Shown here: in pieces, positions 9,912 to 64,000 of the stretch | Numbering within the stretch: the first letter of the stretch is position 1 | Layout: each line of letters begins with the position of its first letter | NCBI GenBank assembly: GCA_934272785.1 | Contig: CAKQSE010000001.1 | Location: 41,212 to 105,211 of the forward strand | Reading direction: 5' to 3' | Length of the DNA stretch: 64,000 bases | From: an uncultured Alphaproteobacteria bacterium | Lineage (GTDB): Bacteria > Pseudomonadota > Alphaproteobacteria > Rs-D84 | Program-made: the position numbers and the translations under genes | The notes under the pieces: model-generated | Seen by the model: only the letters and a program-made list of their open reading frames with translations | Database searches by the model: none | What the model was told of the DNA's origin: nothing

Positions 9912-10546
9912 ATTGGCCAAAATCAACAGAAATAGGTAAATTTTTATCCAAAGAAAGCTTTTATTCACATGATGCTGTATCGGGGGCGTTACGTCAGGTG
10001 CTGGTGGATGATGTTGAAAAAATTACGATATCGCACCGTTTTGCCAAAGATACATTGAATGTGGACGCTGGTACAGAATTTCCAGAAATATTGGTTTTGC
10101 ATATTAAATTAAAGCGTTGCGCAATCAACGAAAAATTGTTAAACGCCTTGGATAAATCTATCTGTGCCGGATATGTATTGTTTGTATTGGAATATATAGA
10201 TATGCAGTGCGCCAGCATTTCGCATAAAACAATTAATTCAAAGGGCGATAGCGTAATTGATAAACGGTGGACGACCGATTGGATGGATGATTTGAATCTG
10301 GAGTTACATGGAACAACTTTGGATCGGGTATATCAAGATTTAGTTAAACAAATATCCGGTGGGCGCGTGAAAACAACCGATAATAATCTGATGCAGGCGG
10401 TTGAACGCGATATAGAACGGACGAGTCTTGAAAGACAAATCGCCGATTTGGAAAGAAAACTGCAAAATACCGTTCAAGTAAATAAAAAATTTGAAATAAA
10501 AGACCAAATTCGTAAAATAGAGGCGAAAGTAAAGGATTTGTCATGA
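9908..10546 (+). CDS. hypothetical protein (~212 aa), possibly DUF4391-like, coupled to the SNF2 helicase
   Basis: Its ATG overlaps the helicase stop (ATGA) and its stop overlaps the next start, so it is co-transcribed. I recall DUF4391 proteins of this size recurring between a helicase-related protein and Type III mod genes, but I recognise no DUF4391 signature in the sequence itself. Confidence 0.55.
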   Translation: MNWPKSTEIGKFLSKESFYSHDAVSGALRQVLVDDVEKITISHRFAKDTLNVDAGTEFPEILVLHIKLKRCAINEKLLNALDKSICAGYVLFVLEYIDMQCASISHKTINSKGDSVIDKRWTTDWMDDLNLELHGTTLDRVYQDLVKQISGGRVKTTDNNLMQAVERDIERTSLERQIADLERKLQNTVQVNKKFEIKDQIRKIEAKVKDLS

Positions 10547-12009
10547 CTGATAAAATCAAATCTATTATTGCCAAAGGTGAAGGATTGACGACAGAGTTTA
10601 AATTGGCGTCAAATAATATTCCAAATAATGTTTATGAAAGTGTATGTGCTTTTTTGAACACTAAGGGTGGCGATATTTTGTTGGGGGTCAATGACAATGG
10701 CCAGGTTGTTGGGGTTGATCCTGATAGTGTATTTAAGATGCGACAAACTTTTTCTGCTGCTATAAATAATAGTCAGATTATAAATCCTCCTTGTTATTCT
10801 CAATTAGAATCATATTCAATTGATAAGAAAACAGTGCTGCACGTTTTTGTGCCAGAATCTTCTCAGGTGCATCGGCATAGAAATAGTATTTATATTCGTA
10901 GCCATGACGGTGATATGAATATCACGGATAACCAAAATTTGGTACACCAACTGTATAATCAGAAAAGTTCATCGTATTCAGAAAATAGGATTTTTGCCGC
11001 TGTTACCATGGATGATTTGCGTATGGATTTATTTGATCGAGTGCGCAAAATTGTTAATGTGCGCAGCAATGGAACACACCAATGGTTGACAATGGATAAT
11101 ATGCACATATTGCAAAATATGGGGTTGTATCAAAAAGATCTAAATACCGGCGAGACGGGCTTTACGTTGGCCTGCATATTGTTATTTGGCAAAGATGAAA
11201 TAATTCATTCGGCGGTGCCTGCATATAAAGTCGATTTAATAAAACGTGTTATAAACAAAGAACGTTATGATGATCGTGAGGTTTTATCAACAAACCTTAT
11301 TGAAACCTATGACAGGGCAATGGCATTTATAGAAAAGCATTTGCCGTCGCCGTTCTATCTGGAAAAAGATGAACGAATAGACCTAAGAAGTATTATATTT
11401 CGTGAAATTATAGCCAATACGATTGTGCACAAGGAGTATTCTGGGGCAGAACCGACAAAAATTGTCATAGAAGAAGACAGAATTTATACAGAAAATAGTA
11501 ATAAACCATATGTAAATGGGTTAATTACTATGAAAAACACTACATCGCATCCAAAAAATCCGAATATAGCGCGTTTTTTTAGAGAATTGGGCCTGGTTGA
11601 AGAGCTGGGATCTGGTTTTACAAAGTTATTTCATTACGCGCGTGCTTATGCAGGTAATGATCCCGTTATACAAGACTTGTCGACCTTCAGGGTTACTTTG
11701 CAAATACCATTTTTTGCGCAAAAACAATCAGATGGTGCGGCTATGGATGCAAATAGTGATCAAGTTACTCAACAAGTTACTCAACAAGTTACTCAACAAG
11801 TTACTCAACAAGTTCAGCGCATTTTGGATTTTTGTGTGGAACCACGATCTGCATTGGAAATTATGAGAATTTTAAACTTGCATGACAGGGCGTATACGAT
11901 GAAACATCTGTTGAAGCCACTGATTCAACGGGGATTGATACAACAAATGTATCCGGATAAACCAAATCATCCATATCAGAAATATGTTACAATCAAAGGA
12001 CGGAAATAA
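10543..12009 (+). CDS. AlbA_2 (Schlafen-like 'divergent AAA') DNA-binding domain protein with C-terminal HATPase_c_4-like domain
   Basis: The N-terminus KSIIAKGEGLTTEFKLASNNIPNNVYESVCAFLNTKGGDILLGVNDNGQVVGVD is the typical AlbA_2 signature, often annotated as RecG-like or transcriptional regulator. The C-terminus has a winged-helix-like tail. It contains an in-frame (QVTQ)n repeat. Confidence 0.75.
   Translation: MTDKIKSIIAKGEGLTTEFKLASNNIPNNVYESVCAFLNTKGGDILLGVNDNGQVVGVDPDSVFKMRQTFSAAINNSQIINPPCYSQLESYSIDKKTVLHVFVPESSQVHRHRNSIYIRSHDGDMNITDNQNLVHQLYNQKSSSYSENRIFAAVTMDDLRMDLFDRVRKIVNVRSNGTHQWLTMDNMHILQNMGLYQKDLNTGETGFTLACILLFGKDEIIHSAVPAYKVDLIKRVINKERYDDREVLSTNLIETYDRAMAFIEKHLPSPFYLEKDERIDLRSIIFREIIANTIVHKEYSGAEPTKIVIEEDRIYTENSNKPYVNGLITMKNTTSHPKNPNIARFFRELGLVEELGSGFTKLFHYARAYAGNDPVIQDLSTFRVTLQIPFFAQKQSDGAAMDANSDQVTQQVTQQVTQQVTQQVQRILDFCVEPRSALEIMRILNLHDRAYTMKHLLKPLIQRGLIQQMYPDKPNHPYQKYVTIKGRK
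11761..11814. repeat. 12-bp tandem repeat caagttactcaa x4 plus a partial copy, in-frame inside the AlbA_2 gene
   Basis: Four perfect copies are seen directly, followed by caagtt. They encode (QVTQ)4. The 12-bp unit keeps the reading frame under copy-number change. Confidence 0.9.
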
Positions 12010-13925
12010 TGATTGAAAAATTGAAAATGGAGCAAAATCCATTGTCTGCCACGGTAGAAAAAATCAAAGAAATTTGCCCTGGTGCGATAACCAGCGATGG
12101 TAAGATAGACTTTGAACAGTTAAAAACGGCCCTTTGCGATGATGTTGCGGCGGATACGATTGAAAAGTACGAATTTACATGGGTTGGGAAAAACGCGGCC
12201 CGGGCAGAGGCCAATCGTCCAATTCGTAAAACCTTGCGTCCGGTTGTAGAGGATTCCAAGAATTGGGATACGACCAAGAATTTGTATATCCAGGGCGACA
12301 ACCTGGATGCATTGAAATTATTGCAGGAATCATATTTGGGCAAGGTAAAAATGATTTACATTGATCCACCATACAATACCGGTAGCGATTTTGTTTATTG
12401 TGATGAATTTGCGGCGGGTTGTGAAGAATACCTGGCTAAAAAGGGGCTGTGTGATGCCGATGGCAACCGTTTGTTTAAAAACACCGAAACAAATGGCCGT
12501 TTCCATTCTGATTGGTGCAGCATGATGTATCCCCGCCTGAAAATTGCCCGTGATTTATTGTCCGATGACGGGGTGATATTTGTTAGCATCAGCGTCAAAG
12601 AATTTGCAACACTAAGAAAAATAATGGATGAAATTTTCGGTGAACAAAACTTTTTATACCATTTATCGGTGGTCAATAAATTGAACGGTAATGATAATTC
12701 TAGCGGTATGATGGAAACAGAAGAATTTTGTTTAATTTATTCCAAAAGTAAAGATACTTTTGAAATGGGGGTTCTGCCTATAGACGATCAGGAAGAGGCA
12801 GATGAGTGGCAACAGGATGAAAAAGGATATTGGAAATTAGGAGGTAGTTTAAAGGCAACAGGTGTAAATGCCCCAAGGGCTGCAAGACCAAATTTGTTTT
12901 TCCCAATCTATATAAATCCACATACCTTAGAATGGTCATTGGACCCGTTAGCTGGTATTGAAGACCAATACCATCTCATTCCCTTGACCGAAGGTCAGGA
13001 AATGAGCTGGTATTGGTCTAAGGGTAGATTTGAGAAAGATAGAAGCGAGGTTATTGTCAAAAAGGTGGGCGACACATATTCTTTGTATAAAAAACAAAGA
13101 CCCCAACTTGGGGATTTGCCTAGCAAACGTGGAAAGACTACTTTCTATAATTCTAGTTATTCTACAGCTAATAGTAATGCTGAGATAAAGAAATTATTTG
13201 AAAACAAAAAAGTATTTGATTATACAAAATCTATGTATTTGATAAAAGATTTTGTGTCATTAGCAAATACTAAACCAGACGATACAGTTCTCGATTTTTT
13301 CTCTGGCTCCGCAACTACTGCGCATGCGGTTATGCAGTTGAATGCCGAAGACGGTGGTAACAGAAGATTTATCATGGTTCAATTACCAGAAAAGTGCGAT
13401 GCAGATTCTGAAGCGTTTAAGGCTGGATATAAAAACATTTGTGAAATCGGTATGGAACGCATCCGGCGTGCGGGTGAAAAAATCAAGGCGGAAAATCCAG
13501 ACAAAGATATAGATATTGGATTCCGTGTTCTGCGTATTGATTCAACCAATATGAAGGATGTTTATTATAAACCATCAGACACAACCCAAAAAACTTTGTT
13601 AGATGCCGTTGATAATATTAAATCAGATCGTTCAGATATGGATTTGTTGTTTGGTGTTATGGTTGATTGTGGGTTGCCGCTGGATATGCCAATTGAAACC
13701 CAAACTTGCGATGGTAAAAAATACTATGTTGTAAACGGTGGTGATTATTTGGTCGCGTGTTTTGAACCGGAGATAACGGAAAAGTTGGTTTATGAAATTG
13801 CTAATTTAAAACCGACAATGGCTGTGTTCCGCGACAGTTCTTTTGCAGATGCCAAAGATAAAGTGAACGTGTCCGAGATATTTAAAAACATTACCGGTCG
13901 TGATGATTGTGTAAAAGTATTATAA
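12009..13925 (+). CDS. mod: Type III restriction-modification system methyltransferase (Mod), beta-class N6-adenine/N4-cytosine MTase
   Basis: Motif IV MIYIDPPYNTGSDF comes before motif I DFFSGSATTAHAV, the beta-class order. Size ~640 aa, and it sits immediately upstream of res with overlapping start/stop codons. Confidence 0.9.
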   Translation: MIEKLKMEQNPLSATVEKIKEICPGAITSDGKIDFEQLKTALCDDVAADTIEKYEFTWVGKNAARAEANRPIRKTLRPVVEDSKNWDTTKNLYIQGDNLDALKLLQESYLGKVKMIYIDPPYNTGSDFVYCDEFAAGCEEYLAKKGLCDADGNRLFKNTETNGRFHSDWCSMMYPRLKIARDLLSDDGVIFVSISVKEFATLRKIMDEIFGEQNFLYHLSVVNKLNGNDNSSGMMETEEFCLIYSKSKDTFEMGVLPIDDQEEADEWQQDEKGYWKLGGSLKATGVNAPRAARPNLFFPIYINPHTLEWSLDPLAGIEDQYHLIPLTEGQEMSWYWSKGRFEKDRSEVIVKKVGDTYSLYKKQRPQLGDLPSKRGKTTFYNSSYSTANSNAEIKKLFENKKVFDYTKSMYLIKDFVSLANTKPDDTVLDFFSGSATTAHAVMQLNAEDGGNRRFIMVQLPEKCDADSEAFKAGYKNICEIGMERIRRAGEKIKAENPDKDIDIGFRVLRIDSTNMKDVYYKPSDTTQKTLLDAVDNIKSDRSDMDLLFGVMVDCGLPLDMPIETQTCDGKKYYVVNGGDYLVACFEPEITEKLVYEIANLKPTMAVFRDSSFADAKDKVNVSEIFKNITGRDDCVKVL

Positions 13926-13943
13926 ACCAAGGGGCGATACACA

Positions 13944-16900
13944 ATGGTCATGAAGATAAAATATAAAAGCCAAGATTTCCAAACAGATGCAACAAATGCC
14001 ATCTGTGATGTATTTGTTGGGCAACCAAAGCAACGTGCGCAATCATACATTTTGGATCCGGGGCAATCAAACGATAATACCAGCGATTTGATTCATTTTG
14101 ATGCGTATGCGAATCCTGCCGTGGCGATAAATAATGATGTTGTATTAGAAAATATAAACAAACAACAAATCAAGGTTGGAATAAAGCCAAACGAAGAACC
14201 AATAAACGGATTGCTTAATTTATCTGTGGAAATGGAAACTGGTACCGGTAAAACATACACTTATACCAAGACGATGTATGAATTGAATAAGCGGTACGGA
14301 TGGTCAAAATTTATCGTTATTGTCCCATCGGTTGCAATTCGTGAAGGGGTGTATAAATCTTTTCAATCAACCGCAGAACACTTCAAAGATCAATACGGCA
14401 AAGCGATAAGATTCTTTATCTATAATTCTGCACATCCAAACGATATTGAAGGTTTCGCAACGGATTCAAACATTCATGTAATGATCATAAATATGCAGGC
14501 ATTTGCATCACGGGGTGAAGATGCACGCCGCATTTATATGAAATTGGATACATTTCGTTCGCGTCGCCCGATCGATGTTTTGGCGGCAACACATCCTATA
14601 TTGATTTTGGATGAACCGCAATCTATGGGTGGGCCGGTTGTTACAAGAATGATGCAGAGTTTTAATCCATTGTTTATATTGCGTTATTCGGCGACGCATC
14701 GTGACCCACATTATATGGTGTATCGTTTGGATGCGCTGGATGCCTATAACCGTAAATTGGTTAAAAAGATCGCGGTTCGTGGTATATCTGTTTTGGGCGA
14801 TACGGCAACAAATGGATATATTTATGTATCAAAAATCAATGTATTTCCAAACAAAAACCCCACGGTTACGATGGAAATAGATTATCAAAACGCAACACAA
14901 ATTACCAAAAGAACGTTGAATTTTGAACATGGCGACAATTTGTATGACAGATCTAACAGATTGGAAGAATATAAAGATCGCTGGGTTATAACCGATATTG
15001 ATGCACGTGATGATTCAGTGCACTTTGAAAATGGTACAGTATTGCATGTCGGTGATGGTGTCGGTAATATGAACGAAGAACAAATTCGTCGTATTCAGAT
15101 TCGTGAAACAATCAACGCCCATTTGGAACAAGAAGAAAGGTTGTTTGAACGTGGCATCAAAGTATTATCCTTGTTCTTTATTGACGAAGTAGCCAAATAT
15201 CGTACCGCCGATGATCAGGGTGGTGTCTACGCCCAGATGTTCGAACAGGAATATGTTGCCGCAGTACAAGATCGGTTGTCACAACTGGGGTTGAATCCAG
15301 AATATGAAAAATTCCTGAGGGGGACAGATGCACATAAATCGCATGCTGGATATTTCTCCATTGATAAAAAGGGTAAAATCCAAGACAGTAAAGTTGGGCG
15401 TTCAGAAACTTCTGCCAGCAAAGAGGGTGATGTCGCCGCATACGATTTGATTATGAAGGATAAAGAACGCCTGTTATCTCGCGAAGAACCAGTGCGGTTC
15501 ATATTTTCGCACTCTGCATTACGCGAAGGTTGGGATAATCAGAACGTGTTCCAAATTTGCACATTGAAACAAAGCACCAACGATGTGTCCAGGCGGCAAG
15601 AGTTGGGCCGTGGTATGCGTTTGTGTGTAAATCAAAATGGCGATCGTATGGATTATTCTGTTTTGGGCGATAGTATTCATAAGATAAACGTTTTGACAGT
15701 TGTTGCATCTGAAAGTTACGAGGCCTTTGCAAAGGGGTTACAATCTGAATATAACGAAGAATTGAAAAACCGTCCGCGTGTTATAACGCCGCAGTTGTTT
15801 AAACAGGCAATTAGATTAGAAACCGGTGAAACGCATCCGGTGACCGAAGAAGAATCCAGGCGTATCTATAATCATCTCATTCGCAAAAACTACATTGATG
15901 ATAATGGCAATTTAACGCAAGATTTTTATACCGCGAAAACAACTGGTGTGCTGGTCATGCCAGAAGGATTCCCTGCGGATGAAATCATCAGAATAGCAGA
16001 ATCTGTTTATAGGCCGATTGAGATTGAAAATCGCAATAAAACCCGTGTCAATATTGACATCAATAAAAAGAACTTTGCAAAACAAGAATTCCAAGAATTA
16101 TGGAACAGAATCAACAAAAAATCTGCATATACAGTTGATTTTGCATCTGATGAATTGGAAAGAAAAGCAATTGAAAGCCTTAATGATAATCTGCATATAA
16201 CCCCAGTAACGGTCGTAGTAACGGGTGGTTTCATCAAAGAAATAACAGAAAATGGTTTTGTAGATGGCGACCGAGTGGCCAGAAGAACCGTCGTAAAAAC
16301 TGCAGAAGTCGGCTTGAAATATGATCTGATTGGAAAAATAGCAGAAGGGACACAATTAACTAGAAAATGTGTGGCGAATATCTTACGTGGTATTCGTAAA
16401 GAAACCTTTGAACAATTTAAAGCCAATCCGCAAGATTTTATCACCAAGGCGATAGGTTTGATAAACAATGAAAAAGCAACAACGGTTATTGAGCATATAA
16501 CCTATAATCCTGTTGATGACCACTTTGATATGAGTATATTTACCGAGCCAGGGAAGCAGATTTTGGCAGATAAAGCCGTAAAAACAGATAAACATCACAT
16601 TTATAACTATGTGGATGCAGATTCTGATATTGAAAAGAATATGGCAACTGAGCTGGAACATCAAGATGATGTGTGTGTTTATGCCAAATTACCGCGCGGT
16701 TTTTATATAAATACCCCAGTCGGTAAGTATAATCCGGACTGGGCCATTGCATTTAAACAGGGGGCTGTGAAACACGTCTACTTTGTTGCCGAAACCAAGG
16801 GAACAATGGAAACACTGAACTTGAAACCTGTTGAATTGGCAAAAATTAACTGCGCCAAGAAACATTTCCAAGCTATCAGTGGCGATAATGTTAAATATGA

Positions 16901-16946
16901 TGTTGTGGACACTTATGAACATTTGATGGATATTGTAACCAAATAA
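13944..16946 (+). CDS. res: Type III restriction enzyme Res subunit (SF2 helicase + PD-(D/E)xK nuclease)
   Basis: Walker A LSVEMETGTGKTYTYTKT, a motif II variant ILILDEPQSMGG, and a C-terminal nuclease motif YNPDW…VYFVAETKG (PD…ExK). Size ~1000 aa, typical for Type III Res. Confidence 0.9.
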   Translation: MVMKIKYKSQDFQTDATNAICDVFVGQPKQRAQSYILDPGQSNDNTSDLIHFDAYANPAVAINNDVVLENINKQQIKVGIKPNEEPINGLLNLSVEMETGTGKTYTYTKTMYELNKRYGWSKFIVIVPSVAIREGVYKSFQSTAEHFKDQYGKAIRFFIYNSAHPNDIEGFATDSNIHVMIINMQAFASRGEDARRIYMKLDTFRSRRPIDVLAATHPILILDEPQSMGGPVVTRMMQSFNPLFILRYSATHRDPHYMVYRLDALDAYNRKLVKKIAVRGISVLGDTATNGYIYVSKINVFPNKNPTVTMEIDYQNATQITKRTLNFEHGDNLYDRSNRLEEYKDRWVITDIDARDDSVHFENGTVLHVGDGVGNMNEEQIRRIQIRETINAHLEQEERLFERGIKVLSLFFIDEVAKYRTADDQGGVYAQMFEQEYVAAVQDRLSQLGLNPEYEKFLRGTDAHKSHAGYFSIDKKGKIQDSKVGRSETSASKEGDVAAYDLIMKDKERLLSREEPVRFIFSHSALREGWDNQNVFQICTLKQSTNDVSRRQELGRGMRLCVNQNGDRMDYSVLGDSIHKINVLTVVASESYEAFAKGLQSEYNEELKNRPRVITPQLFKQAIRLETGETHPVTEEESRRIYNHLIRKNYIDDNGNLTQDFYTAKTTGVLVMPEGFPADEIIRIAESVYRPIEIENRNKTRVNIDINKKNFAKQEFQELWNRINKKSAYTVDFASDELERKAIESLNDNLHITPVTVVVTGGFIKEITENGFVDGDRVARRTVVKTAEVGLKYDLIGKIAEGTQLTRKCVANILRGIRKETFEQFKANPQDFITKAIGLINNEKATTVIEHITYNPVDDHFDMSIFTEPGKQILADKAVKTDKHHIYNYVDADSDIEKNMATELEHQDDVCVYAKLPRGFYINTPVGKYNPDWAIAFKQGAVKHVYFVAETKGTMETLNLKPVELAKINCAKKHFQAISGDNVKYDVVDTYEHLMDIVTK

Positions 16947-16973
16947 TAATTCTTTAATAACTTGACTTATACC

Positions 16974-17008
16974 CCTTTGTAAGCAGTAATTGTGCAACCT
17001 TACAAAGG
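16974..17008. other. perfect 10-bp-stem hairpin (cctttgtaag / cttacaaagg, 15-nt loop) at the junction between res and the phage-like remnant
   Basis: Seen directly. There is no T-tract, and the 3' arm supplies aaaggag as an RBS for the downstream ORF. Confidence 0.5.
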
Positions 17009-17015
17009 AGTAATT

Positions 17016-17219
17016 ATGGGGTATAAAAATCCGCCGGTGGAATATCGGTTTCGACCCGGACAATCGGGCAATCCATACGGGCGAATGGGGCGCCGTGTGT
17101 CCGAACACGAACGGCAATGTCTGTTGCGTATGATGGTGGATGCGATATGCGATTATCGTCCGAAAAACAACACGCGTTTACGCAAAATTATGGGGATATT
17201 GCATGAAACAATTGACTAG
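17016..17219 (+). CDS. DUF5681-like phage-associated small protein (probable fragment)
   Basis: MGYKNPPVEYRFRPGQSGNPYGRMGR: the P-x-E-Y-R-F-x-P-G-Q-S-G-N-P-x-G-R motif is characteristic of DUF5681 proteins found next to phage terminase or recombinase genes. Only ~67 aa. Confidence 0.4.
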   Translation: MGYKNPPVEYRFRPGQSGNPYGRMGRRVSEHERQCLLRMMVDAICDYRPKNNTRLRKIMGILHETID

Positions 17220-17646
17220 TATGCCGAGCAGTTTCTCGGATTTGCAAAAGATGTCTAAAACCGCACGGACCGCCCTTTGGGCGAGATATGTGCCACATTC
17301 GTTTGCGGGACAAAACAAGGTCCTGTGGTACTATATTCAGTGCGAGCAAATGGATGTACGCATACTGCCGAAACATATGGTTAAATTGCGTAAGTACAGG
17401 GATAAGCCTGCTGATTGTATGACACGGGTTTGTAAAACAAAATATCGTTTGGCAACTGGCACGACTATAACCAAGTCTTTTCGTGGTGTGGCGCATCGCG
17501 TGATGGTCTGTGATGACGGCATGTTTGAATATAATGGTCAGAAATTCAGAACACTATCTGGTGTGGCGAGCAGTATCGCAGGGATAAAAATATCCGGCCC
17601 CGACTTCTTTGGTTTTAGCAAAAGGAAAAAGAATGCCGAAAATTAG
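17203..17646 (+). CDS. DUF2924 domain protein (recombinase-associated)
   Basis: The C-terminus …FEYNGQKFRTLSGVASSIAGIKISGPDFFGF matches the DUF2924 signature, and the gene lies immediately upstream of a large serine recombinase, as in alphaproteobacterial prophages. Confidence 0.65.
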   Translation: MKQLTSMPSSFSDLQKMSKTARTALWARYVPHSFAGQNKVLWYYIQCEQMDVRILPKHMVKLRKYRDKPADCMTRVCKTKYRLATGTTITKSFRGVAHRVMVCDDGMFEYNGQKFRTLSGVASSIAGIKISGPDFFGFSKRKKNAEN

Positions 17647-19198
17647 GTGTGCGATTTACACACGAAAATCAACCGAACACGGTCTGGAATTAGAATTTAA
17701 TTCACTGCAAAATCAAGAAGAGGCATGTAAGGCGTATATTGCATCCCAATCATTTAATGGTTGGGAATATTATAAAACATATACCGATGCGGCTATATCA
17801 GGCGGGACAATGTCGCGCCCTGCATTACAGCAGATGTAGGATGATATGTCGCGTGGCCTGATAAATGTGGTTGTTGTATACAAGGTTGATCGTCTGTCAC
17901 GTTCTATTCTGGATTTTCACAGTATGATGAAATACTTTGAAAAATATAATGCCAATTTCGTATCTATTACCCAGTCGTTTGATACATCAAATTCTATGGG
18001 CAAATTGACATTAAATATGCTGCTGTCGTTTGCTCAGTTTGAACGTGAAGTTGCGTCTGAACGCGTGCGCGATAAAATCCGCGCCAGCAAGTCCAAAGGT
18101 ATGTGGCTGGGCGGCGCGCCACGCTTGGGCTATGATTTGAAAGATAAAAAACTGATAATAAATGAACAAGAGGCCGAACAAATCCGTGATTTATTTAACG
18201 CATATCTGCGCCTGGGCAGTGTGTCGGCCCTGATTGACTATGCGGCAGATAAAAATATATTTAATAAACAGTGGAAATCAAAGCGCGGTGCCGTATGGGG
18301 CGGGCGGGAACTCACCAAACATTCGCTGCATCGCATTTTGCGGGACAAAATTTATATCGGAATGATAGAAAGCAAGGTCGCTAATATCTGCGCCCCGGGC
18401 GAGCATCAGGCTATTATAGACACAGAAACATTTAATCACGTGCAGGAAATGCTGACCAAAAATGGCAACGATAAGACTGCACGCGGTGGCTCGCCAAACC
18501 TGATTACGGGAAAGTTATTCAATGCGGCGGGTGTAAAATTTACCAATCAGCGTACCTGTGGTGCGGGCAAGACGCCAAAATATTATTACGCCACACGGGG
18601 ATTTTATCTGCCAGCGCCGGAATTGGATACGATTGTTGCGCGTGCCATAAATGACTTTATGGATTCCGATATGTCAAACCTTGGTGACGGTATTGCAACG
18701 ACATTGAAACGTATTGATACGCACACCATGGAGTATGATGCGCGGCGTAAATTCATTCGCACAATGATACGCAAGGTCGTGTACACTGAAAATCAGATAA
18801 TGATATTTATAAACCTCAGTGCTGGTGAATTACAAAAATATACGGGCGATACTTTTAATCAAAATTCTAAGCCTATGGAATACACGACAGACGCCGATGG
18901 GGTAATCATAAAATGCCCGGTATTTTTGAAAAAGTACAGCAAGACAAACTCGCTGCTAAACATCGTTGATAACAACCATTTAATCGTGCGTGCTTTTGCT
19001 ACGGCGTTTCACTATCGTGATGTGTACGAGCGCGGGCGCACCGTCCCGGAAATTGCAACAGATGAACACGCATCAGAAACCACAGTGCGGCGATATCTGA
19101 AACTGGCGTATATCAATCCGCAAATCATAAATGATGTTTTAGATGCAAAAACGCCATATCGTGTGGACGACCTGTTCCGAATATCGCCAATGTTTTGA
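17609..19198 (+). pseudogene. large serine recombinase interrupted by an in-frame TAG at 17837-17839
   Basis: ORF 17609-17839 encodes the N-terminal catalytic region (IYTRKSTE…RPALQQM*). ORF 17846-19198 continues in the same frame with the resolvase core DRLSRS…ANFVSITQSFDTS…FAQFEREVASERVRDKI and the large-recombinase/zinc-ribbon region. Both ORFs are in frame 2, and the STDEQ box has degenerated to STEHGLE. Confidence 0.75.
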
Positions 19199-19370
19199 CG
19201 CATTCCGCCACTATAAAAAACGGGGTTGTATGTAACCCCGCTTGTTTTTGCGGTTTGGTGTCTTGCGCCGCCACATACAAAATATCAAAACAAAAAATAC
19301 CCCGAAAATCACGCAGAATTCCGGGGTGTTAAAATCACAATTAAACCATAGTGATTTCAATAAATTATCT

Positions 19371-19444
19371 TGGTTGGGGCGCACGGATTCGAACCATGAT
19401 AAAGAGAACCAAAATCTCTTGTCCTACCATTAGACGACACCCCA
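19371..19444 (-). tRNA. tRNA-Gln (anticodon UUG)
   Basis: The reverse complement TGGGGTGTCGTCTAATGGTAGGACAAGAGATTTTGGTTCTCTTTATCATGGTTCGAATCCGTGCGCCCCAACCA folds as a cloverleaf with anticodon stem AGAGA/TCTCT, loop TTTTGGT, T-arm CATGG-TTCGAAT-CCGTG and acceptor TGGGGTG/CGCCCCA. Confidence 0.85.
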
Positions 19445-19656
19445 AAGGCGTCTATGATTATAAATATCTTTTGATTTTTTGCAATAATAAAAATTTAATA
19501 TTTTGAATATGCAATTAAAAAAATCTGATTTTTTTGCTATTTTATACTTGCATTAAACTGTTTAGAATATATAATTATTCAGTTTTTTAATGATTAAAAG
19601 CCTTTTAATTATTAAAACGCTTACCATTACATTTTGCCGCAAAAGGGGCACGAGAT

Positions 19657-25000: not shown

Positions 25001-25118
25001 CGCCGTTATGATTGGTGGTATGTTGGCCAGTTTGATATTTACATTCACACTGACGCCGGCGTTGTTTTTCTTGATAGAACGCGCGCGCGAAAAATTATCG
25101 GGCAAGAAAGCCAAATAA
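22083..25118 (+). CDS. RND efflux transporter permease (AcrB/AcrD/CzcA-like)
   Basis: 1011 aa and 12-TM architecture. MLKFFVRRPVTTVMFVLLWVALGLVSFPKMNVERTPSLDFPMVTATFIYPGASPAEIESQV is the canonical RND N-terminus. Confidence 0.9.
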   Translation: MLKFFVRRPVTTVMFVLLWVALGLVSFPKMNVERTPSLDFPMVTATFIYPGASPAEIESQVIKKAEDAMSEVAGLKKITSQAYENGGYVMAEFNLGVNVNDKSSEVKSKIDALSSEFPDALKQPVVEKLNPLQESVVDIVLRGASPRDMQEYVDNTLSNKITAIKGVASVSVFGGEDRAVRVEMNPELMAARGATVMDVVAALGARNLNVPGGKIETSANASNVRFIGEFESVDEIANLHLTTVEGARFKLSDVATVTDAARDIETGARYNGEPVVIASVVKASDGNAIKISQALRKKMPELQADMQARFPNATMEIISDSSTAVSDETNSTIWGIIQGIIFTVLVLLAFTRNWRSTIIAGVVIPASLIAGFFFMNGSGFTINAMTLLAYSSALGTLVSNAIIMIESALQEMRAGKDPETAAIDGTKKVGVSVLAGVGTNVVVFLPLAFMSGIVGQFMVQFGLTVVYLTLLSLLFSFTLTPMMIAKILRLTGTQNTKKKSATSKDAAPSPAMVKLRKWFDFQHSHPWRVIGLAVAIFLGTTMLMKFVGNEFAPSTDDNEITITARAPMGATFEKSRSISEQIEAELKQFPEVTATSVKIGERGLQNITVKVDLVDRADRRLTDKELARRMLPRLAAIPDVEIQIRAGSSMSSSVSSDIVLNIKGEDDEKREAYATRALELINQIPEVQSAVRAQQTPGREIRFVPDENKMNFWGVKNSYAGSTLRTALYGNDDYKYKERGEEYPIILEFARPFKTAEMFDNVYVNSQKGMVALSSLGKIENVTATPNISRLGKSRITEIDINIGKSTLGPVQAKIQSALDSMAWDMGYSAEFGGMSEIQDETTGEIGQAFLLATILTFMLLAAIMNSLAHPFTIATSILTSFAGVFVVMFLTGATMNVGAMLAFVMLVGLVVNNNILVLEPTIGRINNGESARDALWAEMNDKRYMILMTSIAVMTGMVPQLWSVDGMKVAMAAVMIGGMLASLIFTFTLTPALFFLIERAREKLSGKKAK

Positions 25119-25200
25119 TTAAAACGGGGCATTTGCCCCGTTTTTTTATTGCCCCCTGCGCAAAGCCTGTTATAATACGCCCGAAAAATATCAAAAGGAT

Positions 25201-25843: not shown

Positions 25844-26101
25844 ATGGCTATAACGGATTTTTTATATGATTTTAGTGTCGGCGTTGCGTGCGCATTGGTC
25901 GGCGCGTTGATAAGTATGATGCTGTCGCGTCGCAAAACGCGGCGTTTGACCAGTGAAATTGTCTTGCGACGTCAAGACCTGGAAACACTGCGCCTGGAAA
26001 ATAATCGATTATTGGAAACGATAAAAACGCGCGAAAACGAAATTCTGGAATTACAGAAACAGATTCTGGACGCCCACCCCAAACCCAAACGAAAAAAATA
26101 G
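25844..26101 (+). CDS. hypothetical membrane-anchored coiled-coil protein
   Basis: N-terminal hydrophobic helix followed by a heptad coiled coil (…LETLRLENNRLLETIKTRENEILELQKQIL). I recognise no family. Confidence 0.4.
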   Translation: MAITDFLYDFSVGVACALVGALISMMLSRRKTRRLTSEIVLRRQDLETLRLENNRLLETIKTRENEILELQKQILDAHPKPKRKK

Positions 26102-26515
26102 AGAGAGTAGGGAATAAGAGAGCAGAGTATAGAGAGCAATGAAAAGTGAGTAAGTGACAGAGTGATAAAGTGATACAGTTTTAGAATAGAAAACTTAAAA
26201 ACTTGTCATTCCTGCGCAGGCAGGAATAGGGTCTTTAAAATTACTTCTGTTCACTGTTGCACAAATATTCAGCAAAAATGGCCTGATAACCGTTATCAAA
26301 TAACACCGCAACATTCTGTGTTTGGCTCGCGTTCGCTCGCACTGCACGGTCCCTATTCCTGCCTTTGCCCACCCACGGAATTTATCAATTCCGCGGGGCC
26401 CGGAGCAGGAATGACAAGTTTTTAAGTTCTCTATTCTAAAACTATATCACTTTATCACTCTGTCACTTACTCACTTTATCATTGCTCTCTGCTCTCTACA
26501 CTCTGCTCTCTATAA
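26101..26515. repeat. MITE-like palindromic repeat element (copy A) with ~40-bp terminal inverted repeats
   Basis: Seen directly: left arm gagagagtagggaataagagagcagagtatagagagcaatgaaaagtgagtaagtgacagagtgataaagtgatacag, and right arm …ctgtatcactttatcactctgtcacttactcactttatcattgctctctgctctctacactctgctctcta. Internal hairpins gtcattcctgcgcaggcaggaataggg and cccacccacggaatttatcaattccgcggggcccgg are shared with the elements at 60.2 and 62 kb. Confidence 0.75.
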
Positions 26516-26538
26516 AAAGCGGGGCTGTGCCCCGTTTT

Positions 26539-27441
26539 TTAATCTTCGCCAAAATCCATATCACGCAGTTTTTCGGCACGTGGTGTTATCTTGCCGATGG
26601 ACGTTTGCAACTGTTCAATGTCGGTCGTCGTTTGATTAAAATGTTGGGACACGCGCGCCGCGCGATCGGACAGACGCCCCAGGTCGGTCAGCAACATATC
26701 CAGTTCTTTTTTTATCTTGGCCGCAACGCGTTTGATTTTTATATCGGACAACACCGCGCGAATTGTGTTCAGCGTCGCCCACAATGTTGATGGCGACACA
26801 ATAAACACCTTGCGCCGGGCGGCATATTCAACCGCCCCCGGGAATTCACGGTGCAACGTTTCAAATATCGATTCCGACGCGATAAACATCATCGCCGATT
26901 CTGCTGTTTTGCCGGGTATGATATATTTTTCGGCGATTGCGTCAATATGCTTGCGCACGTCCAGTTCAAATTGCTTGCGCGCCAGGCCGTCGTTCGCATC
27001 CGTCTGCATGCGGTTAAATGATTCCAGTGGAAATTTGCTGTCGATAATCATATCGCCCGGCGGATAGGGCAGGCGTATAATGCAATCTGGTCGCACACCG
27101 GTGTCCATAACGGCCTGGAACGCGTATGATTCTGGGGGCATAATGTCGGCAACCAAATCTTCCAGTTGGCGTTCGCCAAATGTGCCGCGCGCCTGTTTAT
27201 TGCCCATCAAAATATTTTTGAAATTCGCGATGTCGCCACTGATGTTTTTCAATTCAATCGCGTTTTGGGACAGTGCCCCCAGGCGTTCTGCCAACCGTTC
27301 GCGCAGGCGGGCATTATCCTCGCGCAATGCAGAAATATCCACCGTTGGTCGCCGCATTAAAATCGCCAGCAACAATGCAATTATGATAAACAGCAGTAAA
27401 AAAATATAGGTTGTCATTTGTCTTTCCTTTGCTAGAATCAA
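26539..27441 (-). CDS. rmuC: DNA recombination protein RmuC
   Basis: N-terminal TM helix (MTTYIFLLLFIIIALLLAIL), long coiled coil and a C-terminal RmuC nuclease-like domain, ~300 aa. Confidence 0.8.
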   Translation of the reverse strand: MILAKERQMTTYIFLLLFIIIALLLAILMRRPTVDISALREDNARLRERLAERLGALSQNAIELKNISGDIANFKNILMGNKQARGTFGERQLEDLVADIMPPESYAFQAVMDTGVRPDCIIRLPYPPGDMIIDSKFPLESFNRMQTDANDGLARKQFELDVRKHIDAIAEKYIIPGKTAESAMMFIASESIFETLHREFPGAVEYAARRKVFIVSPSTLWATLNTIRAVLSDIKIKRVAAKIKKELDMLLTDLGRLSDRAARVSQHFNQTTTDIEQLQTSIGKITPRAEKLRDMDFGED

Positions 27442-40317: not shown

Positions 40318-40345
40318 AAACGCCCCATCGGGGCGTTTTTGTAAA
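40318..40345 (+). terminator. rho-independent terminator after yidC
   Basis: aaaacgccccatcggggcgtttttg. The same hairpin sequence recurs after plsX at 60137. Confidence 0.6.
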
Positions 40346-60136: not shown

Positions 60137-60165
60137 AAACGCCCCATCGGGGCGGTTTTTATTAG
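60137..60165 (+). terminator. rho-independent terminator after plsX
   Basis: aaaacgccccatcggggcggtttttatt. Confidence 0.6.
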
Positions 60166-60692
60166 AGAGTAAAGTGCAGAGAGCAGAGAGCAATGTTGCG
60201 CGCCATCGGCGCGCTTGTTTTTATCGTTGCGGACTAAATTCTCCTTCGCTGGCGAAGGGGTGTCCACGCAGTGGACGGGGTAGTGGTGCGGTCCCTGCGG
60301 GGCAATGGACCCCGGCCTGGTAACCACCCACGGAATTTAACAATTCCGCGGGGCCCGGGCCGGGGTGACGACTAAAAAATAGCAAATAACATAAATTTGA
60401 ACAATGTTTGTAAATTGTGGTGCCCACCCACACAACACCGTCATACCGGCGCAGGCCGGTATCTATTGTGTTCCCTTGGCAGGTCGCAATTGAGCGATTA
60501 GTCCCCAATAATAAAATCTGCGATTGCTCGGACACGGCTCGCGTTAGCTCGCACTGCATAGTCCCTATTCCTGCGCAGGCAGGAATAACAAGAGTAAAAA
60601 AAGACAAGTTCCCCTCTGGCCAGAGGGGTGCCCGCAGGGCCGGGTCTCGTCATTGCTCTCTGCACTCTGCGCTCTGCTCTCTAAAAAACGGG
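60166..60692. repeat. MITE-like palindromic repeat element (copy B), mosaic of shared modules
   Basis: TIRs agagagtaaagtgcagagagcagagagcaatg … cattgctctctgcactctgcgctctgctctct. Internal modules are shared with the other copies: the gttccccttcgctggcgaaggggtg…ggggcaatgga ~80-bp unit (also at 62430), ccacccacggaatttaacaattccgcggggcccgg, and a ~95-bp unit 60494-60590 that recurs inverted at 62166-62260. Confidence 0.75.
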
Positions 60693-60709
60693 GCGTTGCC
60701 CCGTTTTTT

Positions 60710-61159
60710 TTATTCCCCAATTTTCAGATTTGGGCGCGTGGCGCGTAAATTTTTCAGTGATTGTTCCTGGGCGGCGCGGAATGCGTCCGGATTCCAGATT
60801 TGAAAACTGTTCCCGCGACCAACGAATACGGCGCGGTCGGTAATGCCGGCGTGTTGCAACAAGTCGGCCGGAATCACAATGCGGCCCGTAACGTCAAACG
60901 CCAACTGGCGCGCATCGGCAAACAACATCGCCGACAGGTCGTCCAGCGCGTCATCAAACACACTCATTTTGTCGGTTGCGGCGGCCATCTGTTCCATGCG
61001 GGACATGGACAGTCCCTCGATACAATTGTGCGTGAACGAACGATATAAAACAACACCCGGAAATTTTTCATTGGATACCGAAGCGCGGAAAGAGGCCGGC
61101 ACAGAAATACGCCCCTTGGTATCCAAACGATTTTCATAAGATGAGAGAAACAATGACAT
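60710..61159 (-). CDS. mraZ: transcriptional regulator MraZ
   Basis: Two DxxGR(I/V)xxP repeats (LDTKGRISVPASFR and DVTGRIVIPADL), ~150 aa. Confidence 0.85.
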   Translation of the reverse strand: MSLFLSSYENRLDTKGRISVPASFRASVSNEKFPGVVLYRSFTHNCIEGLSMSRMEQMAAATDKMSVFDDALDDLSAMLFADARQLAFDVTGRIVIPADLLQHAGITDRAVFVGRGNSFQIWNPDAFRAAQEQSLKNLRATRPNLKIGE

Positions 61160-61543: not shown

Positions 61544-61879
61544 ATGCCAAAGAACATTAAAGAAATTATGATTGCCTTGAACAAAGTTTTAACGACAACT
61601 GTTTGGGTGAACGAAGATCGCCAGATTATATCCCTGGCCGATGAATTGAAAATCGGTTTGGGCAATGTGCCACGCAGTATCGAAGATTTGCCACGCACAT
61701 CGCTGGTTGGTGCATATGTTTCGTTGCAAATCCGCACCGATAATTTTGATGTTGCCGCCGAAAGCATGGACACAAAAACATTGGCCTTGCGTGTCAAGGG
61801 CATGGTCTTTGCCGAAGCGAAAAAGATAATGGATGCCGCCGACGTTGCCGACAAGGGCGTCGTTGCGCGTGCCGCATAA
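61544..61879 (+). CDS. hypothetical protein (111 aa)
   Basis: Strong RBS aaaggaggg before ATG 61544 and protein-like composition. It is followed by a hairpin plus T-tract at ~61945-61980. The overlapping minus-strand 278-aa ORF crosses repeat DNA and looks spurious. Confidence 0.45.
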   Translation: MPKNIKEIMIALNKVLTTTVWVNEDRQIISLADELKIGLGNVPRSIEDLPRTSLVGAYVSLQIRTDNFDVAAESMDTKTLALRVKGMVFAEAKKIMDAADVADKGVVARAA

Positions 61880-61984
61880 CGCGCGTGTGCCGCGTGGGCA
61901 CATGGCATCATAACAGTTTCTGGGTATACCAGAAGGAAGGGAGTAGCCACCGTCGAGTAATCGCCGGTGGTTATTTTTTTAGTG

Positions 61985-62845
61985 AGAAAGTGATAGAGTG
62001 ATAAAGTGAAAAAATAAAGTTCCCCTCTGGCGGAACCACCCACGGAATTTATCAATTCCGTGGGGCCGGGGTCGGGGTGGTGCGAAGCACCGGGGTGTCG
62101 TTTTTTCAGAGAGCAGAGTGCAGAGAGCGGAGAGCAATGTTTGTGTCCGCCGATGGCGGGCACTCTTTGTTGTCATTCCCGCGTAGGCGTGAATAGGGAC
62201 TATACAGTGCGAGCGGACGCGAGCCAAACCCACGCAATCGCGGATTTATTATTGGGGACCATATTTACGTATATTGTGCAACAATGGGCGGGAGTAATTT
62301 CTTAGACCCTATTCATGCCTTTGCCCACCCACAAAATCTTGCGATTTTGTGGGGCCCAGAGCAGGAATGACAAGGGCGGTGTATTTGTGTTTATTTTATG
62401 ACCATAGCTTATGTCTTGGTTGCGGCCCAAGTTCCCCTTCGCTGGCGAAGGGGTGGCCACGTAGTGGACGGGGTAGTGGTATTATAAGTCCCTGCGGGGC
62501 AATGGATACCGGCCTCCGCCGGTATGACGGGTGGTATGTGGTTAGAATCATATTTTACGAACATTGTGCAACAATGGGCGAGAGTAATTTTAAAGACCCT
62601 ATTCCTGCCTGCGCAGGAATGACAATAAGGTGCGCTTCGCGCAACACCATAAACCTGGATCCTGTGGTCAAGCCACAGGATGACAATGGCGGTGTATTGG
62701 TGTTTATTTTATGAACATCGTTCAAAATTATGTTGTGAACTTTTTCGTATGTGTCATCCTGTGGCTTGACCACAGGATCCAGGTCATTAGAGTTGTCCGC
62801 CATTGGCGGACACATTCATTGCTCTATGCGCGTTGCTCTCTAATA
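61985..62845. repeat. composite/nested palindromic repeat region (copy C)
   Basis: Begins with gtgagaaagtgatagagtgataaagtg… like the copy-A arm. It contains agagagcagagtgcagagagcggagagcaatg, the ~95-bp unit inverted relative to copy B, the gttccccttcgctggcgaaggggtggccacgtagtggacgggg unit, and duplicated sub-blocks (62258-62330 ≈ 62547-62610; 62378-62428 ≈ 62690-62750). It ends with inverted repeat ggatcctgtggtcaagccacaggatgac / gtcatcctgtggcttgaccacaggatcc and cattgctctatgcgcgttgctctct. Confidence 0.7.
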
Positions 62846-62867
62846 AAACGCCGCGTGGGGCGGCGTT

Positions 62868-64000
62868 TTATACAAACTTTTCTGGGACCAGGCGCATCAT
62901 AATCTTCCACCCGCGGCGGAATATTGTTGTGTCCGGACTGTGATGATATTCGCGTGGTGCAACGTCGCCGGGGCGTTCGCCGGTCCATACCGGGTCATCG
63001 TTTTCGTCCAGTGTCACATGCCACGATGTTTGCGCGTCGCGCAAAATCATCTCGCGCAGTTTTTTTGCAAATTCGCGGCTTTCAAATATTGCGACGTTTT
63101 CGGTGTTAAAGTATGCGCTGCGTGGGTCCAAATTAAAACTGCCAATCCACGAGATTTTATCATCAAACACCATTGTTTTACTGTGCAGAACCGAAAAACT
63201 GGACCGCTTGCGTTCGCGGTCGTGTTCCTGGCCGCGCAGGTTTTCCGCCGACAGCATAAATTCATACACGTCTGCCCCCGATTCAATCAGGCGTTTGCGG
63301 TATTTTTCCCACTTTGCATAGACCGTCGGCGCGTTTGTTGACGCCAGTGAATTTGTAACAATCGTCATATGGACGCCCGATTTTTCTTCGTGCATCATGT
63401 GTTCCAGTCCACCCTGGCCGGGGACAAAATACGCCGCCGAAATATACACAGAATCATCGGTTTCGCGCCACAGGTGTTGCAACGCACGCACAATGTCGCC
63501 ACGATATTCCTGCTTTTGTGCCATGGTCATTTCAACCTTGGCCGGCGGGTCGGCCAAGAATTTCCCGTGCCCCCAGCTGAAATCAAAATTCTTTTGTTTA
63601 TATTTGCGCATGGCGACCTGGATAATGGTGTTATACATGCGGGTGTCTTCGGCACTGCGTTCCTGGATTTCTTTAAATTTCTCTTCCAGTTTGCGCATGT
63701 CTTTTTTGGATTTCGCCTTGGGGAAAACGTCCGCCGGTATTGCCAGGTGGTGATTCCAGTATTCGTCAAAACTGGCAGTGGCGTATTTTGTCATGTCGCC
63801 CAGGAACAGCACGTCTGTATCAGAAAAATTCGACGCGGTTTCTGGATAGAAATAATTACTGCCCACGTTGCGTCCGCCGGTGATATAGGCGACATTGTCC
63901 ACGATAAACAGTTTATTGTGCATGCGCGAATTCAGTCGGTTAAAATCCAACATAAATTGCGGATAGTATAAAACCTTGGCCCGGTTGGCGACGGTGTTGA
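62868..64000 (-). CDS. phospholipase D / cardiolipin synthase family protein (two HKD motifs), N-terminus probably beyond window
   Basis: HNKLFIVDNVAYITGGRNVGSNYF (HxK…D…GG.N) and VLHSKTMVFDDKISWIGSFNLDPRS (second HKD). The frame stays open from the listed Met (63953) to the window edge. Confidence 0.75.
   Translation of the reverse strand, partial: NTVANRAKVLYYPQFMLDFNRLNSRMHNKLFIVDNVAYITGGRNVGSNYFYPETASNFSDTDVLFLGDMTKYATASFDEYWNHHLAIPADVFPKAKSKKDMRKLEEKFKEIQERSAEDTRMYNTIIQVAMRKYKQKNFDFSWGHGKFLADPPAKVEMTMAQKQEYRGDIVRALQHLWRETDDSVYISAAYFVPGQGGLEHMMHEEKSGVHMTIVTNSLASTNAPTVYAKWEKYRKRLIESGADVYEFMLSAENLRGQEHDRERKRSSFSVLHSKTMVFDDKISWIGSFNLDPRSAYFNTENVAIFESREFAKKLREMILRDAQTSWHVTLDENDDPVWTGERPGDVAPREYHHSPDTTIFRRGWKIMMRLVPEKFV

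Follow-up and report, generated by a model that had tools for sequence, protein, structure and literature searches.

What kind of DNA fills the space between two convergent genes of an uncultured gut alphaproteobacterium when every base of it recurs elsewhere, and how could it have accumulated there? The question is raised by an intergenic region near the right end of a 64,000-nt stretch of one contig (the window). A first-pass annotation of the window had described the region as an 860-bp composite of nested and inverted modules, shared with two other elements, and had suggested that independent insertions into one another made it a hotspot. Here, we define the parts of this region, compare it with related loci (labelled L001, L002 and so on), and weigh the readings that could account for it.

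Results

A mosaic of palindromic repeats between convergent genes

The cluster, which we call R3, is ~870 bp of non-coding DNA (61981-62847). As it sits between a conserved 111-aa ORF on the + strand (61544-61879) and a PLD-like gene on the - strand (62868-63953), it occupies a convergent, 3'-to-3' junction. The 111-aa ORF is without a Pfam match, and exact-protein look-ups with it and with MraZ returned no record. PlsX has relatives at up to 90% identity, and the named ones are 'MAG: Alphaproteobacteria bacterium' or 'Candidatus Enterousia sp.'. Enterousia belongs to the order Rs-D84, with members that have reduced genomes (PMC12306168), and the clade of these relatives is probably that order. 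Between the terminators of the two genes, R3 is built as a mosaic from short palindromic repeats of at least six families. Its parts, and two sister clusters in the window (R1 and R2), are as follows.

61947-61980, + strand: intrinsic terminator of the 111-aa ORF, a hairpin (ccaccg...cggtgg) and then a T-run; kept in all syntenic relatives; left boundary of R3
61981-62018, + strand: B-left array, AGTGANNN octamers about four times, with an A-rich linker
62019-62100, + strand: E-type module 1, consisting of hairpin 1 (GTTCCCCTC...GGGG) split by D, hairpin 2 (GGTGC-GAA-GCACC), CGGGGTGTCG and a T-run
62031-62071, + strand: D hairpin in the loop of E hairpin 1; core 62036-62067, CCACCCACGGAATTTATCAATTCCGTGGGGCC
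62107-62139, + strand: A-left arm, a AGAGAGCAGAG... array; inverted partner of 62817-62842
62143-62163, + strand: G hairpin, left copy, GTGTCCGCC-GAT-GGCGGGCAC; partner of 62795-62811
62171-62372, no single strand: REP dimer 1, tags outward, with a TGTC-tagged REP at 62171-62197 (+) and a second REP at 62308-62372 (-) whose loop is filled by a D variant (core 62325-62356)
62375-62430, + strand: linker; its first 31 nt recur at 62687-62718, and its end, GTTGCGGCCCAA, matches the E-dimer spacer
62431-62548, + strand: E-type module 2 (62432-62484), then a CGTC-tagged REP at 62503-62529 (-); direct copy of 60226-60318
62549-62625, no single strand: half REP dimer, in which a copy of the spacer at 62260-62320 is joined to a TGTC-tagged REP without interruption at 62598-62624 (-)
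62631-62643, no single strand: small GCGC hairpin, TGCGCTTCGCGCA
62642-62795, no single strand: REP dimer 2 ('F'), tails outward, with TGTC-tagged REPs at 62656-62685 (-) and 62752-62781 (+), each with a 9-bp stem, a 5-nt loop and a CCA tail; fold z = -14
62795-62811, + strand: G hairpin, right copy; partner of 62143-62163
62817-62842, + strand: A-right arm, CATTGCTCTATGCGCGTTGCTCTCTA
62844-62870, no single strand: terminator of the PLD-like gene; right boundary of R3
60140-60710, no single strand: sister cluster R2, between plsX and mraZ, with A arms, E modules, a REP-like hairpin (60309-60372; CGTC tag, stem starting AC, D in the loop) and a canonical REP at 60439-60465
26100-26525, no single strand: sister cluster R1, between an 85-aa ORF and rmuC, cleanly nested as A arms around B arms around a REP dimer, with D in the loop of the right-hand REP (core 26369-26400)

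Copies in related loci cover each base of 61975-62865 at least eight times, so that this interval holds no unique sequence. The repeats that had been listed for it are real and far above chance. A ~95-bp unit, said to be inverted relative to its counterpart in R2, corresponds to the left half of REP dimer 1: 62170-62259 aligns to the opposite strand of 60501-60591 with 80% identity over 91 nt. Similarly, the reported ~80-bp unit, at 62419-62515, directly matches 60226-60318 (84.5% over 97 nt), and we recover both internal duplications as direct copies, one of ~60 bp (62260-62320 with 62549-62610, 87%) and one of ~50 bp (62362-62405 with 62676-62718, 91%). An inverted repeat described as 28 bp long, perfect and terminal is indeed perfect, along 33 nt (62653-62685 with 62752-62784), and at 89% identity it can be followed for 44 nt (62642-62685 with 62752-62795). 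It is not terminal, since the hairpin at 62795-62811 and the outer arm at 62817-62842 lie beyond it. It is REP dimer 2, and both of its arms are themselves hairpins. The composite character of the region holds, with its extent corrected from 61985-62845 to 61981-62847.

The same modules build R1 and R2. By our judgement of the ORF list, no convergent junction in the window other than these two and R3 has an appreciable spacer, and all module copies in the window are intergenic. B-left is an orphan: the other half of its inverted pair is found in L061 and in R1. A distant blastn search of the region against the PLSDB plasmids gave no match, and two more distant relatives (L001 and L002, ~84% DNA identity) are without any of the modules.

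The tagged hairpins are CGTC-type REPs

CGTC REPs are defined by an unpaired CGTC (often TGTC) tag, an 8-9-bp stem almost always starting with AT, a 4-5-nt loop, and a short tail that is mostly CCA (Di Nocera, De Gregorio and Rocco 2013, PMC3733652). They predominate in Alphaproteobacteria, include Neisseria dRS3 and Rickettsia RPE-4 and RPE-6, and are mostly dimeric, lying between convergent or co-directional ORFs without a dedicated transposase (PMC3733652). Searching with this published definition (tag, 8-9-bp stem starting AT, 4-5-nt loop, and a CCA, AGG or CTA tail), we find eight matches in the window, compared to 0.13 expected from shuffles. All but one of the eight fall in the three clusters, and the five in R3 are bona fide CGTC/TGTC-tagged REPs. 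Stems in the window include ATTCCTGC, ATACCGGC and ATCCTGTGG, with loops GCAG, GGAG and CTTGA. The same search of 632 kb of related loci returned 83 more REPs, ending in CCA (38), AGG (32) or CTA (8). When tagged hairpins with perfect stems are counted in the window, six carry CGTC or TGTC, all within the clusters, and none carries GTAG, which argues against membership in the GTAG REPs of REPIN-RAYT systems.

The REPs pair in inverted orientation. We count 36 such pairings, some of which share a REP: 24 have their tags outward and 12 their tails outward. Dimer sizes are uniform, at 150-175 bp for tags outward and 125-126 bp for tails outward. In their tag, stem, loop, tail, inverted dimers, position at gene 3' ends and lack of a known adjacent transposase, these elements are like the CGTC REPs already described. 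They differ in that their stem sequences are clade-specific, and in that many loops hold D, or a 46-nt module lies between tag and stem. Clustering is also the rule here, whereas clusters of CGTC REPs have been called rare except in Neisseria and Wolbachia (PMC3733652).

A 41-nt hairpin sits in the loops of other hairpins

The D module is a hairpin of 41 nt that is sited in the loops of other hairpins. We searched for it with a degenerate pattern, in which upper-stem positions were left free, in a collection of species-representative genomes. The pattern has four matches in the window, against none in 100 shuffles, and occurs at 53 loci in ~15 gut alphaproteobacterial MAG species, probably of the order Rs-D84. 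These MAGs come from human, sheep and goat gut and are labelled 'Alphaproteobacteria' or 'Rickettsiales'; one D-bearing bin is labelled Bacteroides fragilis, yet is syntenic with the window. IMG/VR viral contigs contain no match to the pattern, and thus give no phage link for D.

D is conserved through compensatory changes in its 11-bp stem. The three pairs left free in the search are complementary in 120 of 123 cells, by G-C/A-T and T-A/C-G swaps, while an A.C mismatch in the stem is kept in 36 of 41 copies. Among copies with up to five mismatches at the 23 fixed positions, 79 of 85 have no more than one.

Of 60 D copies, about 55 lie between complementary arms, which fall into at least eight unrelated stem classes. 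The host classes include REPs and E hairpins and, in L049, the loop of an otherwise ordinary intrinsic terminator. As many copies share host classes, a permutation control for complementarity of the flanks is weak, and we therefore judge loop placement on the count of distinct stem classes. Two copies (in L007 and L028) have arms from two different classes, as would be expected if D copies recombine. With respect to genes, D is enriched at convergent junctions, which hold 25 of the 36 classified copies and account for 69 of 333 junctions overall. A hairpin found almost only inside the loops of other hairpins seems to be new, in that we found no prior description of one.

Scored against local GC skew over 8 kb, a noisy proxy, D occupies the G-rich strand in 25 cases and the C-rich strand in 21 (p = 0.66). 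Transposition as a single strand on the lagging strand is thus without support, and the orientation bias relative to replication that an IS200/IS605-type single-strand element (PATE) calls for is not seen through this proxy. An IHF site in the D loop was rejected by eye: WATCAA is present, with TTR not at the right spacing.

Close relatives differ in module content, order and orientation

A search with the L32 ribosomal protein recovered ten syntenic loci. Three are 94.6-95.7% identical to the window over rpoBC-plsX, with L061 and L062 in the ~96% class, and the closest relatives are 91-96% identical in flanking DNA. At R2, the window's 573 bp correspond to just one bidirectional terminator in L061 and L062, where the site counts as empty, as it does in L055; in L064 it is filled with other inner modules. 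At R3, the site holds 14 bp beyond B-left in L064, 98 bp in L062, 376 bp in L061 and 842 bp in the window. The orthologous E hairpin in L061, with flanks that are ~92% identical, is without D, whereas D is present in the window's copy (62019-62100). D is absent from the 20-kb loci of all three closest relatives, compared to three copies in the matching part of the window. Furthermore, the block 62629-62825 is inverted in L061 (83% over 198 nt). The R1 orthologue in L027 (85-87% identical) has kept the outer arms, with different inner modules.

Collectively, the allele sizes, the presence or absence of D and the inverted block argue that R3 is a true hotspot of insertion and rearrangement, and they support the first-pass suggestion of nesting by insertion. 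Because B-left is present in all close relatives, it is ancestral at R3. The short alleles retain this orphan array and are therefore deletion derivatives, not virgin sites, and R3 was occupied before these lineages split. The nested look comes partly from long composite inverted ends and from inversion and deletion between copies, not from serial insertion alone. In addition, as the relatives are only 91-96% identical, the differences may reflect recombination with diverged alleles as well as transposition.

E modules flank DUF559 genes in related genomes

The E-type modules are double hairpins of the form GTTCCCC...GGGGTG. When aligned, those of the window share a design of hairpin 1, GGGGTG, a variable hairpin 2 and CGGGGT; by eye, the variation in hairpin 2 looks compensated. 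This architecture is common to the window modules and to the inverted ends that flank DUF559 genes in relatives. One apparent long ORF that contains D, in L046, is queA carrying an in-frame insert, a DUF559 domain bracketed by E modules, and homologues that are 59-68% identical are small genes in relatives. At least ten distinct representative proteins are annotated with an N-terminus that reads through an E dimer ('KTTSPCGDSSTGGEL...KFPSGGGVA...RGGL').

We find DUF559 flanked by E at five independent places: between uvrB and tsaE, inside queA, beside secA, after rnpB, and between yqeY and dnaG, the last on an unrelated contig from JGI whose 31-nt inverted repeat has this design too. One of the five is a second cassette, of 623 bp with perfect 17-nt terminal inverted repeats, which is present in L074 and L075 and absent from L073; between L074 and L073, the left flank is 99% identical and the right flank 89%. 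As this right flank is only 89% identical and the uvrB-tsaE gene is syntenic, recombination is an alternative to mobility of the cassette. The uvrB-tsaE gene is also single-copy, and a single ancient insertion, or a 5' element with a regulatory role, could account for its linkage to E. A tblastn search with DUF559 found no copy in the window.

DUF559 has been grouped with Vsr and a group I intron homing endonuclease in a survey of PD-(D/E)XK proteins (PMC3424549), and a Caulobacter DUF559 protein acts as a Vsr-like repair nuclease (PMC12907096). We found no publication that connects DUF559 with repeats, and the consistent pairing of a repeat family with a gene for a Vsr-like endonuclease seems to be without prior description. 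Like the REPtron, in which a single-copy nuclease gene is flanked by cognate hairpins, the arrangement places E around DUF559; unlike it, the flanked gene encodes a PD-(D/E)XK, Vsr-like endonuclease, with another fold and chemistry. We regard the pairing as a lead, not proof, that DUF559 and E may be a REPtron analogue, a nuclease with its cognate hairpins.

Discussion

A selfish mosaic as the most probable reading

Our data are best explained, with good though not full confidence, if R3 is non-coding selfish DNA, a mosaic of non-autonomous interspersed hairpin repeats between the terminators of convergent genes. Its kind is known and its modules are new. As in the BIMEs of E. coli and the NIMEs of Neisseria (dRS3 plus RS units), palindromic units of alternating orientation and recurrent linkers are arrayed at gene ends within one intergenic region, and they vary between related genomes. 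R3 differs from both in its deeper nesting, where inverted repeats enclose further inverted repeats and one hairpin occupies the loop of another, in having at least six module families in 870 bp, and in the strongly reduced genome of its host. Nor did we recognise an IHF-site linker in it by eye.

The components of the mosaic are tagged inverted REP dimers, E double hairpins, the D hairpin, and the outer A and B arrays, periodic at 7-8 nt, with small GC hairpins. In the mechanism that we propose, new hairpin modules would land in or beside existing hairpins, so that repeats attract repeats; recombination between inverted copies would invert the segment between them, and recombination between direct copies would delete it. 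Gene ends beside terminators would tolerate the insertions. In ~0.7 Mb, comprising the window and the related loci, we find no transposase, no HUH-motif ORF (by a crude HUH/Y scan) and no multi-copy ORF, and mobility is for this reason deduced from polymorphism. The mover would be a trans-acting nuclease encoded outside the window, for which DUF559 is the sole candidate seen, and for E. We infer, too, the chemistry of insertion and any effect on how the flanking mRNAs form their 3' ends or on their stability.

Alternative explanations

The alternative that survives best, although we consider it unlikely, is that the modules are mainly host-selected 3'-UTR or terminator elements, and not primarily selfish, whose stacked hairpins would be retained because they end convergent transcription or shield mRNAs from 3' exonucleases. 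Such protection of mRNA has been proposed for the REPs of E. coli. The cluster does lie directly beside terminators and between convergent genes, compensatory changes maintain its hairpins, and the D core is sharply conserved across species. In addition, terminator-like sites number 17, compared to 4.8 expected, and R3 is predicted to fold very stably as a single strand (-405 kcal/mol, z = -13). Against this, close relatives have only 14-98 bp at R3, or a single terminator at R2. Content, order and orientation vary even where flanks are 91-96% identical, and dozens of unrelated loci, as well as the queA frame in L046, contain these modules. In a selfish mosaic, a contribution to host termination or mRNA stability would be a plausible by-product, though not a required one, given that close relatives do without most of the cluster.

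If the dimers were classical MITEs, that is, internally deleted copies of a DDE-transposase IS moved in trans by the parent IS, then their terminal inverted repeats with TG...CA-type ends (TGTCA...TGACA), their uniform lengths and their presence/absence variation would be readily explained. However, none of the 36 inverted REP pairings has direct target-site duplications, the flanks instead continuing the inverted repeat, and on this ground we downgrade a DDE-MITE reading. In the ~0.7 Mb of sampled loci we also found no parent IS or multi-copy ORF, and the ends fold on themselves into tagged hairpins of the kind that the REP definition describes. We therefore think a MITE origin improbable.

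An artefact, with repeats collapsed or mis-joined in metagenome assembly, might be suspected in so repeat-rich a region, the more so as some related MAG contigs end ~600 bp past plsX (as in L002), roughly at the position of the cluster elsewhere. But the internal copies are short (30-100 nt) and diverged (80-92% identical), the sole perfect repeat, at 33 nt, is under typical assembly k-mers, and independent assemblies (L027, L061, L064 and L036) have like clusters, with outer arms in common, at these three junctions, so that we give assembly error very little credence.

Equally hard to credit is a dedicated structured non-coding RNA, or several, encoded by R3: although the folding energy is very low and D and E hairpin 2 covary, the folding is a trivial result of nested inverted repeats, the modules are multi-copy, in both orientations and missing from close relatives, and Rfam 15 (gathering thresholds, and E-values up to 1) passes only tRNAs in the window, with a best score in R3 of 24 bits against a threshold of 140 (E-value 0.1) from a plant microRNA model that merely fits a long hairpin. 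Of the first-pass remark that the hairpins are stable enough to form structured RNAs, the stability thus stands, and nothing, with no Rfam match beyond chance, speaks for a dedicated RNA gene.

Relation to known mobile repeats

With a selfish mosaic as the preferred reading, R3 can be set against other systems. The inverted hairpin dimer is the likely mobile unit here, as it is in REPIN-RAYT and REPtron systems. The GTAG REPs of REPIN-RAYT rely on an HUH tyrosine transposase; no RAYT or HUH ORF was seen in the ~0.7 Mb. The placement of D within REP hairpins recalls the insertion sequences that target REPs, namely IS1397 and ISKpn1 of the IS3 family and members of the IS110 family. Insertion of IS1397 is loop-specific. 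REPs are the specific target of transposition by IS1397, and IS621 goes in on their 3' side (PMC3184786). These are full insertion sequences with a transposase, whereas D is 41 nt long, with no coding capacity and no inverted ends. Short hairpins in reduced genomes, with no known transposase, are also found as Rickettsia palindromic elements and as mitochondrial GC clusters or double-hairpin elements. Like these elements, the modules tolerate in-frame insertion into a gene, here E and D in queA of L046. They have no sequence relationship to them, and in the window they are all intergenic.

A bolder reading, possible but on balance doubtful, joins two of our leads: E modules may derive from an unrecognised class of very small mobile DUF559 cassettes, of ~430-620 bp, and D may insert site-specifically into loops, including those of terminators. 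The only gene of the cassette would then be the DUF559/Vsr-like PD-(D/E)XK nuclease, with double-hairpin inverted repeats as its cognate ends; the cassette would be present in and beyond the gut alphaproteobacterial clade, and the E modules would be its non-autonomous derivatives. If true, this would explain how clusters of CGTC REPs without a transposase build up in reduced genomes.

Implications for a clade with reduced genomes

Genomes of this clade (probably Rs-D84) are strongly reduced, to ~0.7-1.6 Mb, and the word 'repeat' is absent from a genomic paper on it (PMC12306168). Our results show that its convergent junctions are hotspots of nested hairpins that differ between genomes 91-96% identical in their flanks. 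The junction clusters can mark strain-level variation and probably cause contigs to break. They also offer a natural system for the spread of REP-type repeats without a RAYT transposase, with two leads on how this may occur: the loop-dwelling D hairpin, and the E family paired with a Vsr-like endonuclease. Should the DUF559 link prove general, a large family of domain-of-unknown-function proteins would gain a function, or a selfish lifestyle.

Position-specific insertion and mixed-class hairpins

A 46-nt module (GAATCCAAGCGAAGCGCAGGATGCGGCAAGGAC..GTCCGCAGGC) was found placed exactly between the stem (..GGAAT) and the GACA tag of REPs, the CGTC/TGTC-tagged hairpin repeats, which makes it the second type of insertion at a specific position in these repeats. 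The following related loci from other assemblies or MAGs carry it:

L027, ~2000-2060, 46-nt module in REP
L039, ~1030-1080, 46-nt module in REP
L007, L036, L050 and L065, 46-nt module in REPs

The 41-nt hairpin D, which sits in the loops of other (host) hairpins, is in two related loci enclosed by arms of two host classes: the tails-outward REP dimer F with rcE-like in L007 (5904-5935), and the double-hairpin module E with F in L028 (4839-4870). These mixed arms match the pattern expected of recombination between D copies residing in different hosts. In L029, D occurs as a tandem pair.

D and the other modules are also present in L018, L032, L042 and L050, which come from a bin (CAVGNU) labelled Bacteroides fragilis. 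L042 and L050 share synteny, at 79-83% identity, with the window's PLD region (the PLD-like gene bordering cluster R3 on the right). This bin is an alphaproteobacterial genome, mislabelled or contaminated.

Terminators at R2

Intrinsic terminators of the window's genome are stereotyped, taking the form AAAAACGGGGC-NNN-GCCCCGTTTTT or a form with the arms swapped:

25118-25147, terminator
26519-26541, terminator
40318-40340, terminator
60140-60154, terminator
60689-60710, terminator

At R2, the hairpin-repeat cluster between plsX and mraZ, the filled allele has a second, arm-swapped terminator hairpin on the plsX side and the empty allele does not, as if a terminator-like hairpin had travelled together with the insert. 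Within R2, the hairpin GGACCCCGGCC..GGCCGGGGTGAC (window 60309-60372) holds D in its loop, and the hairpin at the orthologous position in L064 (~11455-11490), GGATACCGGC..GCCGGTATGAC, is without D. Their stems differ by paired changes, suggesting either that another family member was swapped in or that the stem underwent compensatory evolution.

An AT-rich island in the window

6000-19450, AT-rich island, GC 34-44% against ~48% elsewhere

Located between tRNA genes (5041-5112 and 19374-19444), this segment appears to be an integrated defence or restriction island. It encodes an SNF2-type helicase, a DUF4391 protein, a Schlafen/AlbA_2 protein, an N6/N4 DNA methylase, a ResIII-endonuclease protein, a DUF2924 protein and a large serine recombinase.

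Hairpin-flanked DUF559 genes

DUF559, a Vsr-like PD-(D/E)XK endonuclease domain, occurs in several settings:

L046, 1939-3537, minus strand (CAKQTG MAG), queA frame with in-frame insert
L074, 1915-2537, 623-bp insert relative to L073 (~3969), mostly DUF559 cassette
L076, 3967-4393 (JGI metagenome contig), DUF559 gene between yqeY and dnaG

The queA insert, ~190 codons long and placed after codon ~35, consists of a DUF559 domain between E modules, of which one contains D, and the DUF559-queA combination recurs in proteins P0121, P0139 and P0140 from other samples. In being in-frame, it resembles the insertions of Rickettsia palindromic elements.

The L074 cassette ends in perfect 17-nt terminal inverted repeats (ATCACAATTACCCCGTC) and, in this one sample, lies directly after the putative terminator of an apparent RNase P RNA gene. 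It is missing from L073, from another sample, whose left flank is 99% identical to that of L074; identity falls to 89% in the right flank.

In L076, from an unrelated organism, a 31-nt inverted repeat (87% complementary) lies on both sides of the gene, and in each arm GGGGTGGGTGA follows a CCCCTCCCTT/AAGGGAGGGG hairpin. DUF559 is therefore paired with hairpins beyond the window's clade as well.
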